Positions 40,083 through 58,835 of a stretch of 64,000 nucleotides of DNA are shown here, in pieces. Position numbers and translations under genes: made by a program. Position 1 is the stretch's first letter. Every line of letters starts with the position of its first letter. The notes below the pieces were generated by a model. That model saw only the letters and a list, made by a program, of their open reading frames with translations, made no database searches and had not been told where the DNA came from. The stretch is from an uncultured delta proteobacterium (GTDB lineage: Bacteria > Desulfobacterota > Binatia > UBA9968): contig CAVWLW010000043.1 of assembly GCA_963755715.1 (NCBI GenBank), positions 96,001 to 160,000 on the forward strand, in the 5' to 3' direction.

Positions 40083-40853
40083 CAGTTTACCCTCTTCGGC
40101 CTGTTTTCAGCCGGCGCCTTCGCCGCTTCCGGCATATTTTTTATTTTACTGATGTACTTCGAGCGCAAAGATCCGGCGCCGTTGCTCGATTTGTCGCTCT
40201 TTAAGGTGCGCCTTCTCACGGCCGCTGTTCTGAGTCATTTCTTCGTGTCGCTTTCGCATACTTCGACGTTCTTTCTCCTGCCGTTTTACTTGCAAGGTAT
40301 TTTGCGATTCACGCCGACCCAGGTTGGATTGACGATCATCTTTTTCTCGCTGGTGATCGTGTTTCTCGCGCCGGTCGGCGGCTGGCTCGCCGACCGGCTG
40401 GGGTCGCGCATGCTTTGCACCGTGGGGTCGGTCCTGACGACCTCGAGCATGTTTGGATTTTCCCGATTGGGCGCGGAAAGCGGTCAAGTCGCCGTGATGG
40501 TTCCGTTGATGCTTTTGGGGCTGGGCTGGTCGCTTTTCCAATCACCTAATTTAAGCGGCATGTTCAACGCCGTGGAGCCGCGCTACGTCGGCGCGGTCAG
40601 CGGTCTCTCGCTTACTTCGGCGAACATCGCCAACGCGATGGGCGTCGCCGTCGGCAGCGTGCTGTTTTTGCGCTGGCTCAATTATCATGGCTTGACCGGC
40701 GCGGCGGTGCCGCCATATACAGAATGGGCTCAAGCGCCGGAAATTTTCATTAGATCTTTTCAGAGCTCATGGCTGGTGGTGGCCGGCTTGTCGTCGGTCG
40801 CGATCCTAACTTCGGCGATGCGTGGCGCGGACGCGAGGAAAAAAATTGAGTGA
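40083..40853 (+). pseudogene. C-terminal half of a DHA2-type (14-TMS) MFS transporter
   Basis: ER..P.PLLDLSLFK, LPFYLQ, GGWLADRLGSR, FQSPN; N-terminal half and a credible start are absent. Confidence 0.7.
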
Positions 40854-40928
40854 TGGTGTGTTGGAGTAATAAAGTATTCGGCGGGGGGAGTATCATTACT
40901 CCAACATTCCATTACTCCATCACTCCAA
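40848..40928. repeat. Palindromic element of 8-mer tandem units (GGAGTRAT / ATYACTCC)
   Basis: GAGTGATGGTGTGTTGGAGTAAT versus ATTACTCCAACATTCCATTACTCCATCACTCCAA; overlaps both convergent stop codons. Confidence 0.75.
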
Positions 40929-41979
40929 CTGGAGTTTTTGCCCCGTGTTCTTTGCTTTGATTTTTTCCAGCACGGCCGCGCCGAGAGCAACGTCGGCGAC
41001 GCCTTGGCCGGCGTTGTTTTTGTAGAAAGTGATTTGCTCCGGTTTGGTTCGGCCTTCTTTGTTGCCAGCGAGGATCTCGCCGATCTCGATCAACTGCTCC
41101 CAGCGGATCACGCCGCGCTCGACCGGATCGTAAATGTCCGCTTGTTCGTCCTGGATCGCTTGTTGAATCGACACGATGCCGTGCACGTGGCTTCGCGCCA
41201 ATGTCGCGTCGTCGATCTCGCGCCGTTTGGCGGCGGTGAAACCGCCTTTGACCAGGCCGACGTTGCTGCCGACGATCGTCGTCACGTGCTGGCCGGGCTC
41301 GAGCCAATTGCCGTCGAACACCGGCACGCTCGAATTGGTCGCGGTTAAAATAATATCGACGCCGCGCACCGCTTCTTCGGGGGAAGCAACTGGCGTGATA
41401 TTGAGATTCGTCACGGGTCCCATTTCTTCGGCGAATTTTTTCCGGTTCGCCGGCGCTCCGGCTGTAGACCTTCACTTCTTTCAGCTTGCGCACCTGCATG
41501 AGCGCGAGCAAATGATTCTTCGCTTGGCCGGCGGCGCCGAAAAGGCCGAGACTCGTGGCGTCGGGACGGGCGAGCAGGTCGGTGCCGACTGCGCTGGTGG
41601 CGGCCGTGCGAAGACCGGTGACGGCGATATTATTCGGTAACTCGGCGCAGGTGATCTCGCCGACGATGATGCCCTTGAGCTCGCCTTCCGCCGAATCATA
41701 CAGCACGATCACCGGATGATTGAGCCGGGGATAAACTTGCTCGTCGGCCATCGGCTTGACCCATTCACAGTGGGTCATCAGGCCCGTGGCTTTGGCCGCG
41801 GGTACGCCGCCTTGATGGACGCTCACGCGCACTCCGGTTGGAATATGAATTCGTCGGCGCGGCGCATTCAATTGCGGATTCTCACCCCATTCGCGAAAGC
41901 CCAGACGCACAGCCTCCACGGCTTCCGCCATGGAGACGATGCCGCGAATTTCTTGTGGGCTCACCAGAAGCGGTTGCAA
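40920..41979 (-). CDS. Ornithine cyclodeaminase / mu-crystallin family protein, frameshift near 41450
   Basis: TGLRTAATSA, GLFGAAGQA, ILTATNS, GRT...QITFYKN..GQGVADVA. Confidence 0.85.
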
Positions 41980-41998
41980 CTTTAGCCTCCTCGATGAT

Positions 41999-42069
41999 TA
42001 AAGGATAAGGGATAAAGGATGAAGGATAACAGTACTAATTCGAAGTTTTGCCCTTTGCCTTTATCCTTT
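41999..42069. repeat. Palindromic element of 7-mer tandem units (AAGGATR / ..TATCCTT)
   Basis: AAAGGATAAGGGATAAAGGATGAAGGATAA versus TTGCCCTTTGCCTTTATCCTTT. Confidence 0.7.
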
Positions 42070-42633
42070 CAGAGTCGTCGGTGCCACCTGCGGGCGGGCG
42101 ATCAGCTCTTCGCCCCAGCGTTTCAGATTCGGATACGTGCCGTCGATAACGACACCATAGCGCTCCCGGCGCGTATAGAACGGAATGAACGATAGGTCCG
42201 CCAGCGTGTAGACGTCGCCGACGAGATATTTTTTGCCTGCCATTTCCTTGTCGAGAGTCGTTAGATGCTGCTTCATTCGTTGTTGAGCTTTCTCGGGCTC
42301 TCGGTTGTGCGTGATGTCGGAAGCTGCGGCGTGGAGTCGAGTGCTGAAGTAATCGACCCAGATGCGCGCCTTGGAGCGCAACAGGAGGTCGGCCGGCATG
42401 AGCCGAACTTCGGGAAATTTTTCTTCGAGATATTCGTCGATGATCGCCGACTCGTAAATAACCCCCTCGCCGTCGACTAAGACCGGCACTTTGCCGTAGG
42501 GGTTTTGGCGAGTCAGATCTTCAGGCTTGTTCTTGAGATCCACTTCGATGAGCTCATAAGGCAGCTTCTTTTCGGCGAGGACAATCCTTGTCCTGTGAGC
42601 ATAGGGTCAAGTGTGGCTGGAATAGAGTTTCAT
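42061..42633 (-). CDS. Selenocysteine-containing glutathione S-transferase (omega/SspA-like, U-P-Y-A active site), 190 aa
   Basis: GGAGG RBS then ATG 42633: MKLYSSHT-TGA-PYAHRTRIVLAEKK, in frame with NPYGKVPVL and YESAII; TGA (42607-42609) sits at the CPYA Cys position; SECIS-like hairpin follows. Confidence 0.88.
42578..42594 (-). promoter_or_regulatory. Bacterial SECIS-like element of the Sec-GST
   Basis: AGGACAA-GGA-TTGTCCT, a perfect 7-bp stem with a G-led loop starting at nt 20 after the UGA. Confidence 0.75.
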
Positions 42634-42668
42634 GTCGTCCCCTCCTTGTAGTGGTCAATATCAACTGG

Positions 42669-42771
42669 ATTCAAATCGTTCAAGTCGTTCGAAATAGTTC
42701 AAATCGCCGGTTCGGAGAGGATACACGTGCATGGTTCCTAGACGACTTGAACGGCTTGAACTATTTGAACG
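42669..42771. repeat. Palindromic element of 9-mer tandem units (GTTCAARTC / TTGAAC)
   Basis: TTCAAATCGTTCAAGTCGTTCGAAATAGTTCAAATCG versus CGACTTGAACGGCTTGAACTATTTGAAC. Confidence 0.75.
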
Positions 42772-42774
42772 GGT

Positions 42775-43581
42775 CTAGCGCGTGCGCGTTTGTAACCGTT
42801 CCTGCAGCGCGTCGCCGACCAGATTGAGCGCGAGCACGGTGATCATGAGCGCGAGCCCGGGGTACGTGGTGAGATGAGGTGCGACCAGCAAGAATTGCCG
42901 GCCATCGTTCAGCATCGCGCCCCAAGACGGCGTCGGTGGTTCGACGCCGAGTCCGAGAAAGCTCAAGCTCCCTTCGGCCACAATCGCAGCGGCTAAACCA
43001 AAAGTGCTTTGAATCAAAAGCGGCGGCAGCAGATTCGGCAGCAAATGGCGCAAAATAATGCGCTTCGGACGGCAGCCGAGAGAGCGCGCCGCCTGAATGA
43101 AATCTCGTTCGCGCAGAGAAAGAATCTCGCCGCGCACGAGCCGGGCGTAGCCGGTCCAACCGATCAAACAAAGGGCGAGAATGACGTGATCGAGACCAGG
43201 ACCCAGGACGGCGGTAAACGCGATGGCGAGCAAGATGCCCGGAAACGCCATCAAAATATCGACCAGGCGCATGAGCATTTGATCGATCCAGCCGCCGAAG
43301 TAACCGGAAAGGGAGCCGATCACGACGCCGATGGCGAGCGAAAGGGCGACGGTCGTGATCCCGACCAGAAGTGAAATGCGTCCGCCATAGATTATTCGGC
43401 TCAATATATCGCGTCCCAGCTTGTCCGTGCCGAGCCAATGCTCGCGTGAACGTGCGATTAGATCCTGATCGAGGTTTTGGCCGAACGGATTATAGGGCGC
43501 GAGCGCGGGCGCGAAAAGTGCCGCGGCGGCAAGCAACAGGAGAATCGCCGCGCCGGCATAAAACCAACCTTTACTCGCCAT
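42775..43581 (-). CDS. Peptide ABC transporter permease (DppC/GsiD-like)
   Basis: HWLGTDKLGRD, LSFLGLG..PPTPSWG. Confidence 0.92.
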   Translation of the reverse strand: MASKGWFYAGAAILLLLAAAALFAPALAPYNPFGQNLDQDLIARSREHWLGTDKLGRDILSRIIYGGRISLLVGITTVALSLAIGVVIGSLSGYFGGWIDQMLMRLVDILMAFPGILLAIAFTAVLGPGLDHVILALCLIGWTGYARLVRGEILSLRERDFIQAARSLGCRPKRIILRHLLPNLLPPLLIQSTFGLAAAIVAEGSLSFLGLGVEPPTPSWGAMLNDGRQFLLVAPHLTTYPGLALMITVLALNLVGDALQERLQTRTR

Positions 43582-44494
43582 AGGTGACTCGTGGATCGAC
43601 GAGTTTGTAAACAAGGTCGGTGATGAAATTCACCAGAATATACGACACCGCGATCACCAGCACGCAGCCTTGCACGAGCGGATAGTCGCGGGTCTGGATC
43701 GCCTGTACGGTCAAGCGGCCGAGGCCGGGCCAGCTAAAAATGGTTTCGGTGATCAACGAGCCGGCGAGCACGCTGCCAAACTGCAGGCTCATGATCGTGA
43801 CGACGGAAGTGAGCGCGTTGCGCAGCGTGTGTTTTAACCAGACGCGCCGCTCGGGCAAACCTTTGGCGCGAGCGGTTTGAACGTAGTCCTCGGTCATCGC
43901 GCGCAGCAGGCTCGCGCGCAGGATGCGGATCAGGATCGCTGCCATGCCTAAGCCGAGCGTGAGCGCCGGCAAGAACAAATGGCTCAGACCGCCGCGGCCG
44001 GAAACCGGCGCCCAACCGAGCTGAATGGAAAAAATAATCATCAGCAACGGACCCAGCCAAAAATTCGGCAGCGACAAACCGAGCAGTGAAAACAGCAACG
44101 CCAGCCGATCGATCCAGCCGCCGCGCCGCACGGCCGCTAGGATGGCGAGGGGAAACGAAATCAAGACCGCGGCGATCATGGCGCACAAGGCAAGCTCCAA
44201 GGTCGCCGGCAAACGCGCGCCGATGATCGTGCCGACGCTCGTTCGTTCATAAAGCGAACGACCGAGATCGCCCGCGGCGAAATCGAGTAGAAAGGTCCGA
44301 TATTGCGTCAAGAGCGGCCGGTTGAGGCCCAAGCTTTCGCGCAGCTCTGCCTTATCCGCGGCGTTGGCGGTCTCGCCGAGCATGACCTCTACGGGATCGC
44401 CGGGAATCACATGAATCAGGAAAAATACCAGCGTGAGCACGCCGAAGAGCGTGGGCAGCAAAAGCATGAGGCGAGCGAGAATGTAACGCTTCAC
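43571..44494 (-). CDS. Peptide ABC transporter permease (DppB/GsiC-like)
   Basis: IPGDP, RLPATLEL, DYVQTARAKGL, ETIFSWPGLG, RDYPLVQG. Confidence 0.92.
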   Translation of the reverse strand: MKRYILARLMLLLPTLFGVLTLVFFLIHVIPGDPVEVMLGETANAADKAELRESLGLNRPLLTQYRTFLLDFAAGDLGRSLYERTSVGTIIGARLPATLELALCAMIAAVLISFPLAILAAVRRGGWIDRLALLFSLLGLSLPNFWLGPLLMIIFSIQLGWAPVSGRGGLSHLFLPALTLGLGMAAILIRILRASLLRAMTEDYVQTARAKGLPERRVWLKHTLRNALTSVVTIMSLQFGSVLAGSLITETIFSWPGLGRLTVQAIQTRDYPLVQGCVLVIAVSYILVNFITDLVYKLVDPRVTYGE

Positions 44495-44503
44495 GGTGTG
44501 GTG

Positions 44504-46075
44504 TCACTGCACGGCGATATGTTTGAGCGAGATCAAATCACCGTCGGGATAGGGCGTGAAATTTTTGATCGACGGTTTCTTCACGATCACGTTCTTCCAC
44601 CACCAGAGCGGCACATAAGGTAAATCGTCGGCGAGCAGACGCTGGATTTCGCCATAAATACGCTTTCGCTCGGCCGGCTCGATCGTCGCTCGACCGCGCT
44701 CGAGCAGGCGGTCGACCTCGGCATTGACATAGCGACCGCGATTGTCGCCGTTGGGCGGCACGCTCGAGCTGTGAAAAATCTGAAACAAGATATCCGGGTC
44801 CATCACGCCGACCCAAGCGAGCGAGTAAAGATGAAAGTTGCCTTTTTTTATGTCGCTGTAAAAAGTGCCCCATTCATAGCTACGGATTTCCAGTTCGATG
44901 CCCACCTGTTGCAACTGTTCCTTGATCGCCTCGGCGATGCGCCGGCGTAAATCGATGTTGGTGGTTTTGAACGAAAGACGAAAACGTGGCAGAGGGCCGG
45001 CGCCGTCGGGATCAGGAAAGCCGGCTTCATCGAGCAGTTGCTTGGCTCGGTTTGGGTCGTAGGGCCAGCGCGGAGCGTGGTCGTCGTAAGCCCAATTGAG
45101 CGGCGAGAGAACGCCGCTGGCAACGGTTCCCGTGTCTTTCAGCAGATGTCGAACCAGACTCTCTCGATCGATGGCATAGGCAAGCGCGCGCCGGACTTTG
45201 ACGTTTTTTAGGATCGGATGGGTGAGATTGATGCCGATGTACTGAAAGGTCGTGCCGGCGTAAGCGGCGACGTCTGCGGCACTATTATTTTTAAGCCAGG
45301 GAAGCATGTCGGGCTCGAGATCGTTCTGCATGAAGTCGATGTTGCCTTTTTCAAATTCGAGCACGCGCACCAAGGCGTCGGGCACGATTTTGAAAACCAC
45401 GCCGGGCAAAGGCGGCCTTTCGTCCCAATAATACGGATTGCGTTGGAGCGTGACCTTTTCGCCCGGCTCCACTGCCTGCAATCGGAACGGTCCGGAACCG
45501 GCGGGCGATTGATAATTGGTGGCACCTTCGGCGACCGAGTCCGCCGGTACGATTCCCTGCGTGAACTGCTCCACGAACGGCGCATGCGGCGCAGCAAGGT
45601 GAAATCGCAACTGATAAGCGCCGCTCTGTTCGATTGCCCGCAACGGTTTTAGCAGACCGCGTTTGGGCGAGCGATTCTTCAGATCGAGCATGGACTCGTA
45701 GGTGAATTTCACGTCGGCGGCGGTGAGCGGCCGTCCGTCGGAAAACTTTACGTCATGGCGCAAGTCGAAAACATAAGTGGTGGCGTCGATCATGCGCCAG
45801 CCCGCGGCGAGCTCGGGTTGTAAGCGCGTGTGTTGATCGGCGCGCAAGAGCGAATTGTAAATTAAGTTGCCGATGCGCACGGCGTTGGCGTCGGTGGCGT
45901 AGCGGGGATCGAGCTGAAGAGGATAACTTTCGATGCCGACGACTAAATAATCCGGCGGGCGAGCGCTCGAAGGCGACCGGCACGCGGCAAAAATCAGCAC
46001 AAGCAGAGCGGGGAAAAAATAAACAAGACGGCGGCAGGGCAAGCAAATTCTCGCCAAACAATTTTGACTGACCAT
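44504..46075 (-). CDS. Peptide ABC substrate-binding lipoprotein (family 5)
   Basis: Lipobox FAAC; LRHDVKFSDGRPLTAADVKFT, GSGPF, VRRALAYAIDRE; true start near 46075, not 46849. Confidence 0.9.
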   Translation of the reverse strand: MVSQNCLARICLPCRRLVYFFPALLVLIFAACRSPSSARPPDYLVVGIESYPLQLDPRYATDANAVRIGNLIYNSLLRADQHTRLQPELAAGWRMIDATTYVFDLRHDVKFSDGRPLTAADVKFTYESMLDLKNRSPKRGLLKPLRAIEQSGAYQLRFHLAAPHAPFVEQFTQGIVPADSVAEGATNYQSPAGSGPFRLQAVEPGEKVTLQRNPYYWDERPPLPGVVFKIVPDALVRVLEFEKGNIDFMQNDLEPDMLPWLKNNSAADVAAYAGTTFQYIGINLTHPILKNVKVRRALAYAIDRESLVRHLLKDTGTVASGVLSPLNWAYDDHAPRWPYDPNRAKQLLDEAGFPDPDGAGPLPRFRLSFKTTNIDLRRRIAEAIKEQLQQVGIELEIRSYEWGTFYSDIKKGNFHLYSLAWVGVMDPDILFQIFHSSSVPPNGDNRGRYVNAEVDRLLERGRATIEPAERKRIYGEIQRLLADDLPYVPLWWWKNVIVKKPSIKNFTPYPDGDLISLKHIAVQ

Positions 46076-46117
46076 AACCTGTTTGGTAGTATCGGTCAAT
46101 TTCCTGTTATCGAGGCT

Positions 46118-47362
46118 ATGTTGAAATATTTTATTCGCAGATGTTTGCCGTTGCTTGCAGTGCTGGCGCTGATTTTGGCTCGACCGGTGCGAGTCGTCGC
46201 TCAAGATATACCCTTCCCCGTGCTTGCCGGTCTCGAGGGCGCCGTCGAATTTTGGAAGCAAATTTTTAGCCGTTATAGCTTCGCCGAAGTGGTCTTTTTC
46301 GACCCTATGGATCCGGCGACGATTTACAGCACGTTGCGCGTGCCCGACAATGAGCTCGGCCGCGCATTGGTCGAGAAGGAGCGAGCGCGAATCGTCGCCG
46401 ACTACGACCTGATCGACGACGAAACGCGCATCCGAACGCAGCGCGGCGCCAAGGAGCATTTCGCCGAAGGTCTCAAGGTCGCCGGGCGTTATATGCAGCA
46501 AATGCAAAAAATATTTCGCGCCGAGGGACTGCCAGTGAACCTGGCCTATCTGCCTTTGGTCGAATCGTCTTTCAACGTCCGGGCGCGCTCGATTGTGGGT
46601 GCCGTCGGCATGTGGCAGTTCATGCCGGAAACCGGCAAGAAATTCATGCGCATCGATGAGAAGGTAGACGAGCGGCGTGATCCGTTCGCCTCGACGCGGG
46701 CGGCGGCGCGCCTCTTGAAAGAAAACTATCGCCTGCTCAGCAATTGGCCGCTGGCCATTACCGCCTACAATCATGGCACCGACGGGATTTTTCGCGCCAT
46801 CAAAACCGTTGAATCTGACAATCTCGTGGACTTGATTCGGAGCTATCAATCGCCGACTTTTGGTTTTGCGTCAAAGAATTTCTACGCGGAATTTCTCGCC
46901 GTGGTCGAGATCGCAACCAACAGCGATGTGTATTTTCCGTTTCTGCGCGCGCACCGCCCGGTCACGCTGCGCGAAGTGGCCTTGAGGCGCCAAGCGCCGC
47001 TCCAGGCCACGCTGAAACCGGCGGCCATCTCACAGAGTGATTTTTTTGAATGGAATCCGGCCCTCGATCCCAACGCCAAATTCATTCCCGTCGGTTACCA
47101 GATCAAACTGCCGCCGGATAAAGTCGATGACTTTCTCGCCGCAGAACGGCGGGTCGCGATGGCGGCGAGCAAAAAAGCGCCGACGACCGCGCGGTCGAAC
47201 AAGGGGAACGTAAAAAGCGTCGCTCGTCCGGCGCCGCAACCGTCCGCGCGCAAAGTCGCCGTGCCGGCAGCCCGCGCTCCGGCTGAACCGCGCAGAACGA
47301 GCGGCTCGATCAAGAGAGCCGACGTCAAAACCGCGGCTTCGCTCAAAATGGCCGCTCAATGA
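46118..47362 (+). CDS. Lytic transglycosylase (MltD-like SLT) with low-complexity basic tail
   Basis: LPLVESSFN (catalytic E), AVGMWQFM, ITAYNHG; signal peptide. Confidence 0.88.
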   Translation: MLKYFIRRCLPLLAVLALILARPVRVVAQDIPFPVLAGLEGAVEFWKQIFSRYSFAEVVFFDPMDPATIYSTLRVPDNELGRALVEKERARIVADYDLIDDETRIRTQRGAKEHFAEGLKVAGRYMQQMQKIFRAEGLPVNLAYLPLVESSFNVRARSIVGAVGMWQFMPETGKKFMRIDEKVDERRDPFASTRAAARLLKENYRLLSNWPLAITAYNHGTDGIFRAIKTVESDNLVDLIRSYQSPTFGFASKNFYAEFLAVVEIATNSDVYFPFLRAHRPVTLREVALRRQAPLQATLKPAAISQSDFFEWNPALDPNAKFIPVGYQIKLPPDKVDDFLAAERRVAMAASKKAPTTARSNKGNVKSVARPAPQPSARKVAVPAARAPAEPRRTSGSIKRADVKTAASLKMAAQ

Positions 47363-58232: not shown

Positions 58233-58835
58233 CTACAGGATGGCTTTTACTGACGGCCGCGCTTTCATTCTTTCCAGGTACTTGCCAAGGCGAGGTAGCG
58301 ACGGATCGGGCAGCACGCCGAATCCTTCGAGCCGGGTGAAGCGCGGCAACAGGTCGGCGTCGACTAAAGAAAAGTCGCCCATGAGATACTGTTGAGCGCC
58401 GATTTCATTTTCCAGGCGTTGCAAAAGCTTTTTTAACTCGCTTTTGGCACCGTCGATCACCTGCTGATTCTGATCTTTTTGCTCCTTCATGAGCTCCATG
58501 CGGAGTTTCTGGTACGGTCCGTCAAAGTGGGTCATGCCGTAATCGATCAGGATCCGGGCTTTGGCTTTTTGGCCCGGCTCTTTCGGCATGAGCGGTGGAT
58601 TGGGATATTTCTCTTCGAGATATTCGTTGATGACGCACGATTCGTAGAGCACGGTGGCGTCATCGGTGAGCACCGGAACTTTGCCGTAGGGATTCATTTT
58701 GAGATAGTCGGGCGTTTTCTGTTCCTGCGCCCGCAAATCGATCGGAACAATTTCGTAGGGCAAATTCTTTTCCGCCAACACGACTTTGACCCTCTGACAG
58801 TTGGGTGAAGATTTGAAATCGTAGAGTTTGATCAT
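58233..58835 (-). CDS. Glutathione S-transferase family protein (SspA-like, S-P-N-C active-site loop)
   Basis: KLY..KSSPNCQRVKVVL, NPYGKVPVL, YESCVINEYL. Confidence 0.92.
   Translation of the reverse strand: MIKLYDFKSSPNCQRVKVVLAEKNLPYEIVPIDLRAQEQKTPDYLKMNPYGKVPVLTDDATVLYESCVINEYLEEKYPNPPLMPKEPGQKAKARILIDYGMTHFDGPYQKLRMELMKEQKDQNQQVIDGAKSELKKLLQRLENEIGAQQYLMGDFSLVDADLLPRFTRLEGFGVLPDPSLPRLGKYLERMKARPSVKAIL

Follow-up and report, generated by a model that had tools for sequence, protein, structure and literature searches.

Glutathione S-transferase (GST)-like proteins with selenocysteine (Sec) are known as predictions from metagenomic sequence. The name 'Glutathione S-transferase' stands among the new selenoprotein families in the table rows of the Sargasso Sea study of 2005, with four sequences (PMC1088965); it recurs in those of the Global Ocean Sampling (GOS) study of 2008, with 12 Sec against 1,036 Cys sequences (PMC2398784), and a passage of a 2026 review places a 'GST-like protein' under PF13409, among the selenoproteins of largely uncharacterised function (PMC13188914). 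We describe here a gene of this kind, hereafter Sec-GST, on the minus strand (42061-42633) of a 64,000-nucleotide stretch of DNA, hereafter the window, which covers positions 96,001 to 160,000 of contig CAVWLW010000043.1 in the assembly GCA_963755715.1 of an uncultured delta proteobacterium of the Binatia. The ninth codon of this gene is a TGA, and we read the gene as specifying a Sec-decoded, cytosolic, GST-fold enzyme of 190 residues in Candidatus Binatia, a reading to which, together with the chemistry proposed below, we assign a probability of roughly 0.85. An initial annotation of the window, made from the letters alone, had stated that GST-like selenoproteins are predicted from metagenomes and little characterised, in agreement with the table rows and the passage cited.

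Like the published GST-like selenoproteins, as far as their table rows describe them, the window gene belongs to COG0625/PF13409, has a single in-frame UGA read as Sec, has Cys homologs and carries a bacterial Sec insertion sequence (bSECIS) directly downstream of the UGA. The published set, compared by these rows, comes from marine metagenomes, whereas the clade of the window gene is one of soil and sediment Binatia, extends across an order and is duplicated within genomes. The window gene is a new, order-wide Binatia member of the GST-like selenoproteins predicted since 2005. A literature search pairing Binatota with selenocysteine returned a match in a reference list only.

Several groups of better-described proteins offer points of comparison. 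The best sequence matches among solved structures are Cys-type GSTs annotated as SspA/RegF, namely 4hoj of Neisseria gonorrhoeae and 4qq7 and 6v91 of Burkholderia (E 2e-38 to 5e-35), which share 34-36% identity with the window protein, superpose on it with template-modelling (TM) scores of 0.87-0.90 and show C-P-F-S where it has U-P-Y-A; two of them, 4hoj and 4qq7, were crystallised with glutathione (GSH). They differ from the window protein in having Cys rather than Sec, in the presence of a P-H-P motif and in genomic context. The Omega, Lambda, dehydroascorbate reductase (DHAR) and Grx2-type enzymes act through mixed-disulfide chemistry rather than conjugation; Omega GSTs, which bear an N-terminal extension of about 20 residues before beta1, have thiol-transferase, dehydroascorbate-reductase and S-(phenacyl)glutathione-reductase activities via a mixed disulfide with GSH, and serve as a model for the window protein. 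In human GSTO1 (1eem) the catalytic Cys of C-P-F-A lies at the N-terminus of alpha1, where the window protein has U-P-Y-A; this match is weaker, at 91 bits (E 7e-25) against 135 bits for the SspA/RegF type, and residue 2 of the window protein aligns with residue 25 of GSTO1, so that the Omega extension is lacking. The likeness to omega-class and related Cys-GSTs drawn on in the initial annotation holds for the position of the C-P-[FY]-A motif, but the nearest relatives are of the SspA/RegF type and the extension is absent. Glutaredoxin-like selenoproteins (NCBIfam Uxx-star) and Grx2 share the thioredoxin-fold N-terminal domain, with the Sec of U-x-x-x at the N-terminus of alpha1; however, the Uxx_star and Grx2 models score only 26 bits each on the window protein (cut-offs 66 and 133), and the glutaredoxin-like selenoproteins are of about 70 residues and devoid of the GST_C domain that the window protein possesses.

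A selenocysteine codon removed by gene calling

The coding sequence runs on the minus strand from an ATG at 42633-42631 to a TAA stop at 42063-42061 and comprises 190 codons, including that for the Sec residue (U9). A Shine-Dalgarno sequence, AAGGAGG (42641-42647), stands ahead of the ATG with a 7-nt spacer, and mechanical open reading frame (ORF) calling begins a frame of 160 aa at a GTG (42541-42543) downstream of the TGA (42607-42609). Translation upstream in the frame of this ORF yields M-K-L-Y-S-S-H-T, the TGA, and then P-Y-A-H-R-T-R-I-V-L-A-E-K-K; from this reading of the frame, and from the alignment of homologs, the TGA is assigned as a codon decoded as Sec. There is no Cys in the 190-residue read-through product. 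The called ORF start at 42543, the upstream ATG at 42633 with its GGAGG, the TGA as codon 9 and the want of Cys are all as the initial annotation had described them.

The eight codons 5' of the TGA show protein-level conservation with synonymous variation across homologs, and most of the 30 orthologs inspected have a purine run resembling GGAGG equally far from the start. Nearly all database proteins of the clade are 136-168 aa long; the starts of inspected homologs fall at or near the position of the GTG at 42543, and the eight short entries inspected all begin 3' of the TGA, which upholds the earlier suspicion that standard annotation truncates the gene. Judging from these starts, the short database entries are truncated gene calls.

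A six-frame search of 61 genomes, namely 60 relatives and the genome itself, which span three families and 11 genera of one order, recovered a match in every one (61/61). Among the matches listed, a homolog with an in-frame TGA (54-99% identity) is present in 57 of the 61; in one of the remaining genomes, G033, the match is cut by the contig end ahead of the Sec site, and three others (G001, 65% complete; G004, 92%; G048, 93%) have only TGA-free paralogs of 41-45% identity. Fifty loci were fetched, one of which (L073) is of a distant U-P-W-C type and was kept apart; in all 49 close homologs, counting the window's own gene (L024), a TGA occupies the aligned codon and is followed by P-[YF]-A-H-R-T-R. 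These counts include two loci from unpublished genomes (L025 of G005 and L047 of G035), both with the TGA and the hairpin described below, and their removal changes nothing. A metagenome scan seeded with a Cys form, the database protein P0002, gave 80 loci, 79 with TGA and one with TGT. Among 250 further genomes sampled from the phylum beyond this order, none gave a close homolog at E <= 1e-45 with the query used.

The same genome has a second Sec-GST paralog (L054; G000:C2:45767-46321) of 59% identity, with one TGA, the U-P-Y-A motif and an identical SECIS core with GGC as the loop; both paralogs are present in most genomes of the order. A subset of the orthologs (L030, L032-L035, L047, L048 and others) has a Cys three residues ahead of the Sec, in S-C-H-T-U, a C-x-x-U arrangement that is absent from the window copy. 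In those species the Cys could, going by its placement, act as a resolving thiol.

The TGA also recurs in independently assembled DNA. At least 0.74 of the sampled words recur in each of 14 DNA-type runs, which derive from soil, sediment and rhizosphere, and two of these, of different studies, yielded contigs across the site: one (X2, record 6) spans the whole stretch with no difference listed at 42607-42609, and the other (X4, record 17) covers 42560-42769 with no other letters. The TGA is unchanged in both of these independent assemblies. Towards the 3' end of the gene, the contigs of X4 (DNA) and X15 (an RNA library) have one base fewer at 42072, a loss that would end the protein in ..A-P-T-T rather than ..A-P-T-T-L-K-G, nearer to the 186 aa of most orthologs; it represents either strain variation or another assembly indel.

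If the TGA were a true stop, the product would be the 160-aa frame from GTG 42543, or else the locus would be a pseudogene or an assembly error. It is true that the mechanical ORF call and almost every gene call in the databases begin downstream of the TGA, and this assembly has apparent indels in the neighbouring cyclodeaminase gene and in selD. However, a product from 42543 would be missing beta1 and alpha1 along with the active site, protein-level conservation of the eight upstream codons goes with a Shine-Dalgarno sequence at the right distance, and the TGA is found in 49/49 and 79/80 homologs and in both independent assemblies. We regard termination at this codon as extremely improbable, and hold the window gene to be almost certainly a genuine selenoprotein gene.

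The genome that holds the window (7.4 Mb in 76 contigs, 93.6% complete) is equipped for Sec synthesis and insertion. Its tRNA-Sec scores 76.7 bits (gathering score 47) and has a TCA anticodon by ARAGORN, and a selA-selB-selD cluster lies on contig C3, with scores of 617 (selA), 416 (selB) and 213+155 (selD) bits, all above the curated cut-offs. The selD gene (L019; G000:C3:71086-72013) has an in-frame TGA of its own, in the context ..A-G-U-A-A-K... Of the 31 longest open frames in the window, 14 terminate at TGA, and therefore the genome does not reassign TGA globally.

The downstream hairpin as a bacterial SECIS

The initial annotation had pointed to a perfect AGGACAA-GGA-TTGTCCT hairpin at nt 13-29 after the TGA. 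This hairpin is present at 42578-42594 (minus strand) and forms the core of the predicted fold, its stem consisting of AGGACAA (42594-42588) and TTGTCCT (42584-42578) around a GGA loop (42587-42585). The bSECIS model, as given in the relevant passage of the 2026 review, has an apical loop of 3-9 nt, an upper stem of 4-16 bp, a G in the first two loop positions, a UGA-to-loop distance of 16-37 nt and a minimum free energy <= -7.5 kcal/mol (PMC13188914). With a 7-bp stem, a 3-nt loop and a UGA-to-loop distance of 19 nt, the window hairpin fits this model in loop, stem, GG and spacing. The corresponding 24-nt segments of 48 homologs fold at -6.2 to -11.5 kcal/mol, and an extra C:G pair in most of them brings the value to -8 to -11.5 kcal/mol.

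The more telling signal lies in codon choice, which we counted over 79 distinct 39-nt sequences (alignment A2). Inside the hairpin the Arg codon at +7 is AGG and the Val codon GTC in 79/79; the third base of the Arg codon at +5 is G in 79/79, while its first base is A in 67 and C in 12. For Thr, 65 sequences use ACA and 14 use ACT, with ACC and ACG absent, and the third base of the Ile/Leu codon is T in 77, A in 2 and never C. The ACT variants form a loop of U-A-G-G-A-U-U at a spacing of 17, still inside the bSECIS model. In the codons for Pro, Ala and Leu that flank the hairpin, three to four letters occur at the third base. Over the remainder of the 49 genes, AGG accounts for 6.2% of 629 codons for Arg, ACA for 6.9% of 319 for Thr, ATT for 20.8% of 505 for Ile and GTC for 37.8% of 574 for Val. 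Rare codons are therefore maintained in the hairpin for the sake of the RNA, not of the protein.

A Cys form offers a converse case. The sole Cys form with a DNA sequence (L136, with TGT) encodes the same H-R-T-R-I-V-L peptide by way of AGA-ACA-CGA-ATC, with which the stem is abolished; it folds at -2.3 kcal/mol, whereas the 79 Sec forms range from -6.2 to -11.5. On the pattern of codon usage, the hairpin is a SECIS-like element that is constrained at the RNA level.

A more distant group of Sec-GSTs with a U-P-W-C motif (L189 of the unpublished genome G035, L190 of G045 and L191 of G032), to which L073, likewise from G035, also belongs, has 38% identity to the window protein. The hairpin of this group is unrelated in sequence (GUGCG-GAU-CGCAC), and lies 16-28 nt after the TGA with its loop starting at nt 21 with a G. 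The query used for this group retrieved no U-P-W-C Sec-GST from the genome that holds the window.

Interchange with Cys and the descent of the Sec forms

At the Sec site Cys stands in two database proteins of full length, P0002 (78% identity) and P0013 (69%), which read ..C-P-Y-A-H-R-T-R... From the best 150 of 13,372 matches at E <= 1e-3 in an exhaustive representative search, we took 57 proteins with lengths of 190-267 aa and alignments that start within the first three residues of the query; P0002, P0013 and the window's own paralog were added to give 60 TGA-free relatives. At the column of U9 these have Cys in 51 cases, as C-P-[FY]-[ASC...], and Ser in the other nine. The Cys/Sec interchange at codon 9, for which the initial annotation had proposed to align homologs, is hence seen in P0002, P0013, L136 and 51/60 relatives.

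In a quick maximum-likelihood tree, with supports from the Shimodaira-Hasegawa-like approximate likelihood-ratio test (SH-aLRT) only, the 22 Sec forms used form one clade together with P0002 and P0013 (support 95), with the Cys pair inside the subclade of the window protein (98), while the nine Ser forms make up a separate branch. The SECIS nucleotides are the same in both Sec subclades. From these shared nucleotides and the tree we infer that Sec arose once in the clade, with Sec-to-Cys reversions thereafter.

The Ser-type paralog of the window (58245-58829, minus strand) has S-P-N-C at the active-site column and, in alignment A1, 41% identity to Sec-GST. In several relatives, G003, G014, G019, G027 and G029 among them, the contig that bears Sec-GST also has a syntenic copy about 15-19 kb away.

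Fold, active site and proposed chemistry

The read-through product scores well above the Pfam cut-offs for both GST domains: 79 bits against 22 for GST_N_3, 77.3 against 25 for GST_N_2 (PF13409), 68 against 20.9 for GST_N and 49 against 20.7 for GST_C. No NCBIfam model reaches its cut-off. An AlphaFold2 model built on an 82-row alignment has a mean predicted local distance difference test (pLDDT) score of 97.1 and a predicted TM score (pTM) of 0.92; in it beta1 comprises residues 2-5 and alpha1 residues 10-21, such that the protein starts one residue ahead of beta1 and residue 9 sits at the N-terminus of alpha1. The model matches the GSH-bound structures 4hoj, 4qq7 and 4dej with TM scores of 0.87-0.92, and many GSTs with scores of about 0.9. 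The motifs of the GSH-binding G-site are invariant across the Sec forms, K-V-P-V in 22/22 and [YF]-E-S-A in 22/22. By these models the protein has a complete GST fold with Sec at the position of the catalytic Cys of Cys-type GSTs; the placement of the U-P-Y-A Sec in the initial annotation is corroborated by the aligned Cys of 51/60 relatives and by the modelled alpha1 N-terminus.

No second Cys is conserved across the 22 Sec forms, and eight of the 22 are Cys-free. As the window copy is itself without Cys, it has no internal resolving residue. The genome encodes gshB (394 bits, cut-off 299); in a search of the genome with the glutathione reductase model TIGR01421, the best match scored 448 bits, under the cut-off of 556.

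Based on the fold, the motif and the GSH site, and on what is generally known of Cys-type GSTs and monothiol glutaredoxins, we suggest the following cycle. UGA-9 would be decoded by SelB with Sec-tRNA(Sec), directed by the in-frame hairpin 13-29 nt downstream, whose loop G's fit the bacterial SECIS consensus. Sec9 lies in the beta1-alpha1 loop, where Cys-type GSTs have their catalytic Cys and glutaredoxins the first Cys of C-P-Y-C. Its selenolate may attack a glutathionylated or disulfide substrate held against the GSH site, which the cis-Pro loop of K-V-P-V and the Y-E-S-A motif would provide, to form a mixed Se-S intermediate with GSH. A second GSH would then resolve this intermediate with release of oxidised glutathione (GSSG), in a monothiol cycle like that of glutaredoxins and Omega GSTs (GSTO). 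The model and the alignments thus lead us to favour, with some reserve, a GSH-dependent selenol thiol-transferase or reductase, where the initial annotation had supposed a Sec-dependent deglutathionylase or reductase.

The complete GST_N and GST_C domains and the intact G-site, as well as TM scores of about 0.9 to conjugating GSTs of the Tau class, would also suit a conventional conjugating enzyme, in which the Sec or its neighbours only activate GSH for attack on an electrophile, with no covalent Se-S intermediate. Nevertheless, the Sec aligns with the catalytic Cys of 51/60 relatives of the C-P-[FY]-[ASC] types, Cys types are generally known to use mixed-disulfide chemistry, and the Ser forms (9/60) sit in a separate branch of the tree. 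Moreover, the cost of Sec insertion would be hard to explain for a residue that merely hydrogen-bonds GSH. We hence consider conjugation unlikely and retain the thiol-transferase cycle as the preferred chemistry.

Points on the other side

A number of observations weigh against the reading of Sec-GST as a Sec-decoded enzyme. Within selD there is a frame change mid-gene, near ..E-I-L-K-G-G-A-D-K / V-K-E-S-G.., which, if real, would disable Sec synthesis; the like break in the cyclodeaminase gene near Sec-GST leads us to regard it as an assembly indel. The minimal hairpin of the window folds at -7.2 kcal/mol, slightly short of the -7.5 of the bSECIS model, and its 63-nt context, at -11.7 kcal/mol, has a z-score of 0.00, with 93 of 200 shuffles as stable; on account of this z-score we reject thermodynamic stability as evidence for a SECIS. 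Rfam at gathering thresholds gives no matches over the whole window, and hence no curated bacterial SECIS family. Covariation in the hairpin is thin: four of eight pairs are invariant, there are three double-sided cells, and 13 of 500 shuffles reach the observed score. The covariation across relatives that the initial annotation had named as a check is therefore only partly in evidence, in that the hairpin is conserved and one clean pair swap exists, an A:U to U:A double change (ACT...ATA) in L175 and L176, but the classical signal is weak because the helix hardly varies. The Cys form that has lost the hairpin is a single locus, L136. Lastly, metatranscriptome contigs (X15, X16), which may include DNA, cover only 41997-42446 and stop short of the TGA.

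To these may be added that SspA/RegF, the name under which the nearest solved relatives go, denotes a family of regulators, such that a non-catalytic role is conceivable: the protein might be an RNA polymerase (RNAP)-associated regulator like SspA/RegF that carries Sec by chance and is not an enzyme. SspA is also its best NCBIfam match (110.9 bits), the best Protein Data Bank matches in sequence and fold are annotated as SspA/RegF, and the source names of certain homologs in the databases are 'RNA polymerase-associated protein' or 'stringent starvation protein A'. However, that score lies far under the cut-off of 314 (NF007016), and 4hoj and 4qq7, the structures matched under the name 'SspA', bind GSH and retain Cys. 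The P-H-P motif, which according to the relevant passage of a preprint is required (residues 84-86 of Escherichia coli SspA) for contact with RNAP/sigma-70 (bioRxiv 10.1101/2024.05.24.595836), is present in 14/60 other relatives but in 0/22 Sec forms, with P-E-V in the window protein. The genes beside Sec-GST are ABC permeases and a cyclodeaminase-family gene, not sspB, which follows sspA in E. coli according to the same preprint. We accordingly deem a regulatory role very improbable, and continue with Sec-GST as an enzyme.

Genomic context

Upstream of Sec-GST, on the same strand, lie genes for an ATP-binding cassette (ABC) transporter of the Opp/Dpp/Nik/Gsi type: a C-subunit permease (42775-43614; Opp2C, 304 bits against a cut-off of 300), a B-subunit permease (43571-44494; Opp2B, 350.5 against 350) and a family-5 substrate-binding protein (44504-46222, start approximate), whose matches are all under the curated cut-offs. 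The transporter was considered as a glutathione importer and this was rejected, the GsiB, GsiC and GsiD models scoring 149/594, 306/463 and 269/484 bits, all below cut-off, and only the nickel/oligopeptide-type Opp2B and Opp2C models reaching theirs. As the models for the binding protein and for Gsi fall short, we assign no substrate to the transporter.

Downstream, at 40912-41979 on the minus strand, is a gene of the ornithine-cyclodeaminase/mu-crystallin family, which in this assembly is split over two frames, its N-terminal half in the ORF 40912-41979 and its C-terminal half in the ORF 40920-41423; in relatives it occupies a single frame. The split is probably an assembly indel, or else the gene is a pseudogene. 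Judged by tblastn, the permeases flank Sec-GST in nearly all genus-level orthologs and also at L047-L049 (61-64% identity), and the cyclodeaminase gene follows Sec-GST in the genus-level orthologs; at L050, L052, L053 and L093-L095 the same method found neither permeases nor cyclodeaminase beside Sec-GST.

In 40700-47200 the terminators predicted number 10, against 9.1 in shuffles, and no promoter site was placed that would explain the expression of Sec-GST. The spacer between permease and Sec-GST (42670-42772) contains inverted arrays with a period of nine, (TTCAA-N4)n and (TTGAA-N4)n, which could fold into a long hairpin; orthologous spacers have TTCCAA/TTGGAA variants in both arms. The triple-unit TTCAA/TTGAA pattern occurs 34 times in the genome, as against 0 for a reversed control. 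A role of these arrays as an operator of Sec-GST was considered and rejected, since with 34 copies they constitute a dispersed genomic repeat of the repetitive extragenic palindromic (REP) kind.

The conserved string of genes for a substrate-binding protein, two Opp/Dpp/Gsi-type permeases, Sec-GST and an enzyme of the cyclodeaminase/ketimine-reductase family invites a speculation, to which we give little credence at present: Sec-GST might supply the redox step of a Binatia-specific uptake-and-processing module. Such a module would import a peptide or conjugate containing glutathione or cysteine, the selenol would open this molecule reductively at an S-S or S-C bond, and the amino-acid moiety so released would be processed by the downstream enzyme.

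Conclusions

The principle of a GST with Sec is already known, such a family having been predicted in 2005; what the Binatia add concerns its annotation, its evolution and its setting. Gene callers remove the active site of an enzyme family that extends across an entire order, as seen in the prevalence of 136-168-aa entries for this clade. A SECIS can be embedded in a pre-existing conserved peptide, H-R-T-R-I-V-L, solely by means of rare synonymous codons, and it decays after reversion from Sec to Cys. Binatia are abundant bacteria of soil and sediment, and their near-universal and duplicated Sec-GSTs imply a steady demand for selenium linked to glutathione redox chemistry. The conserved linkage to an ABC importer of the peptide type provides a lead to the substrate of the GST-like selenoproteins. 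If the proposed uptake module were true, it would give GST-like selenoproteins their first physiological substrate and pathway.

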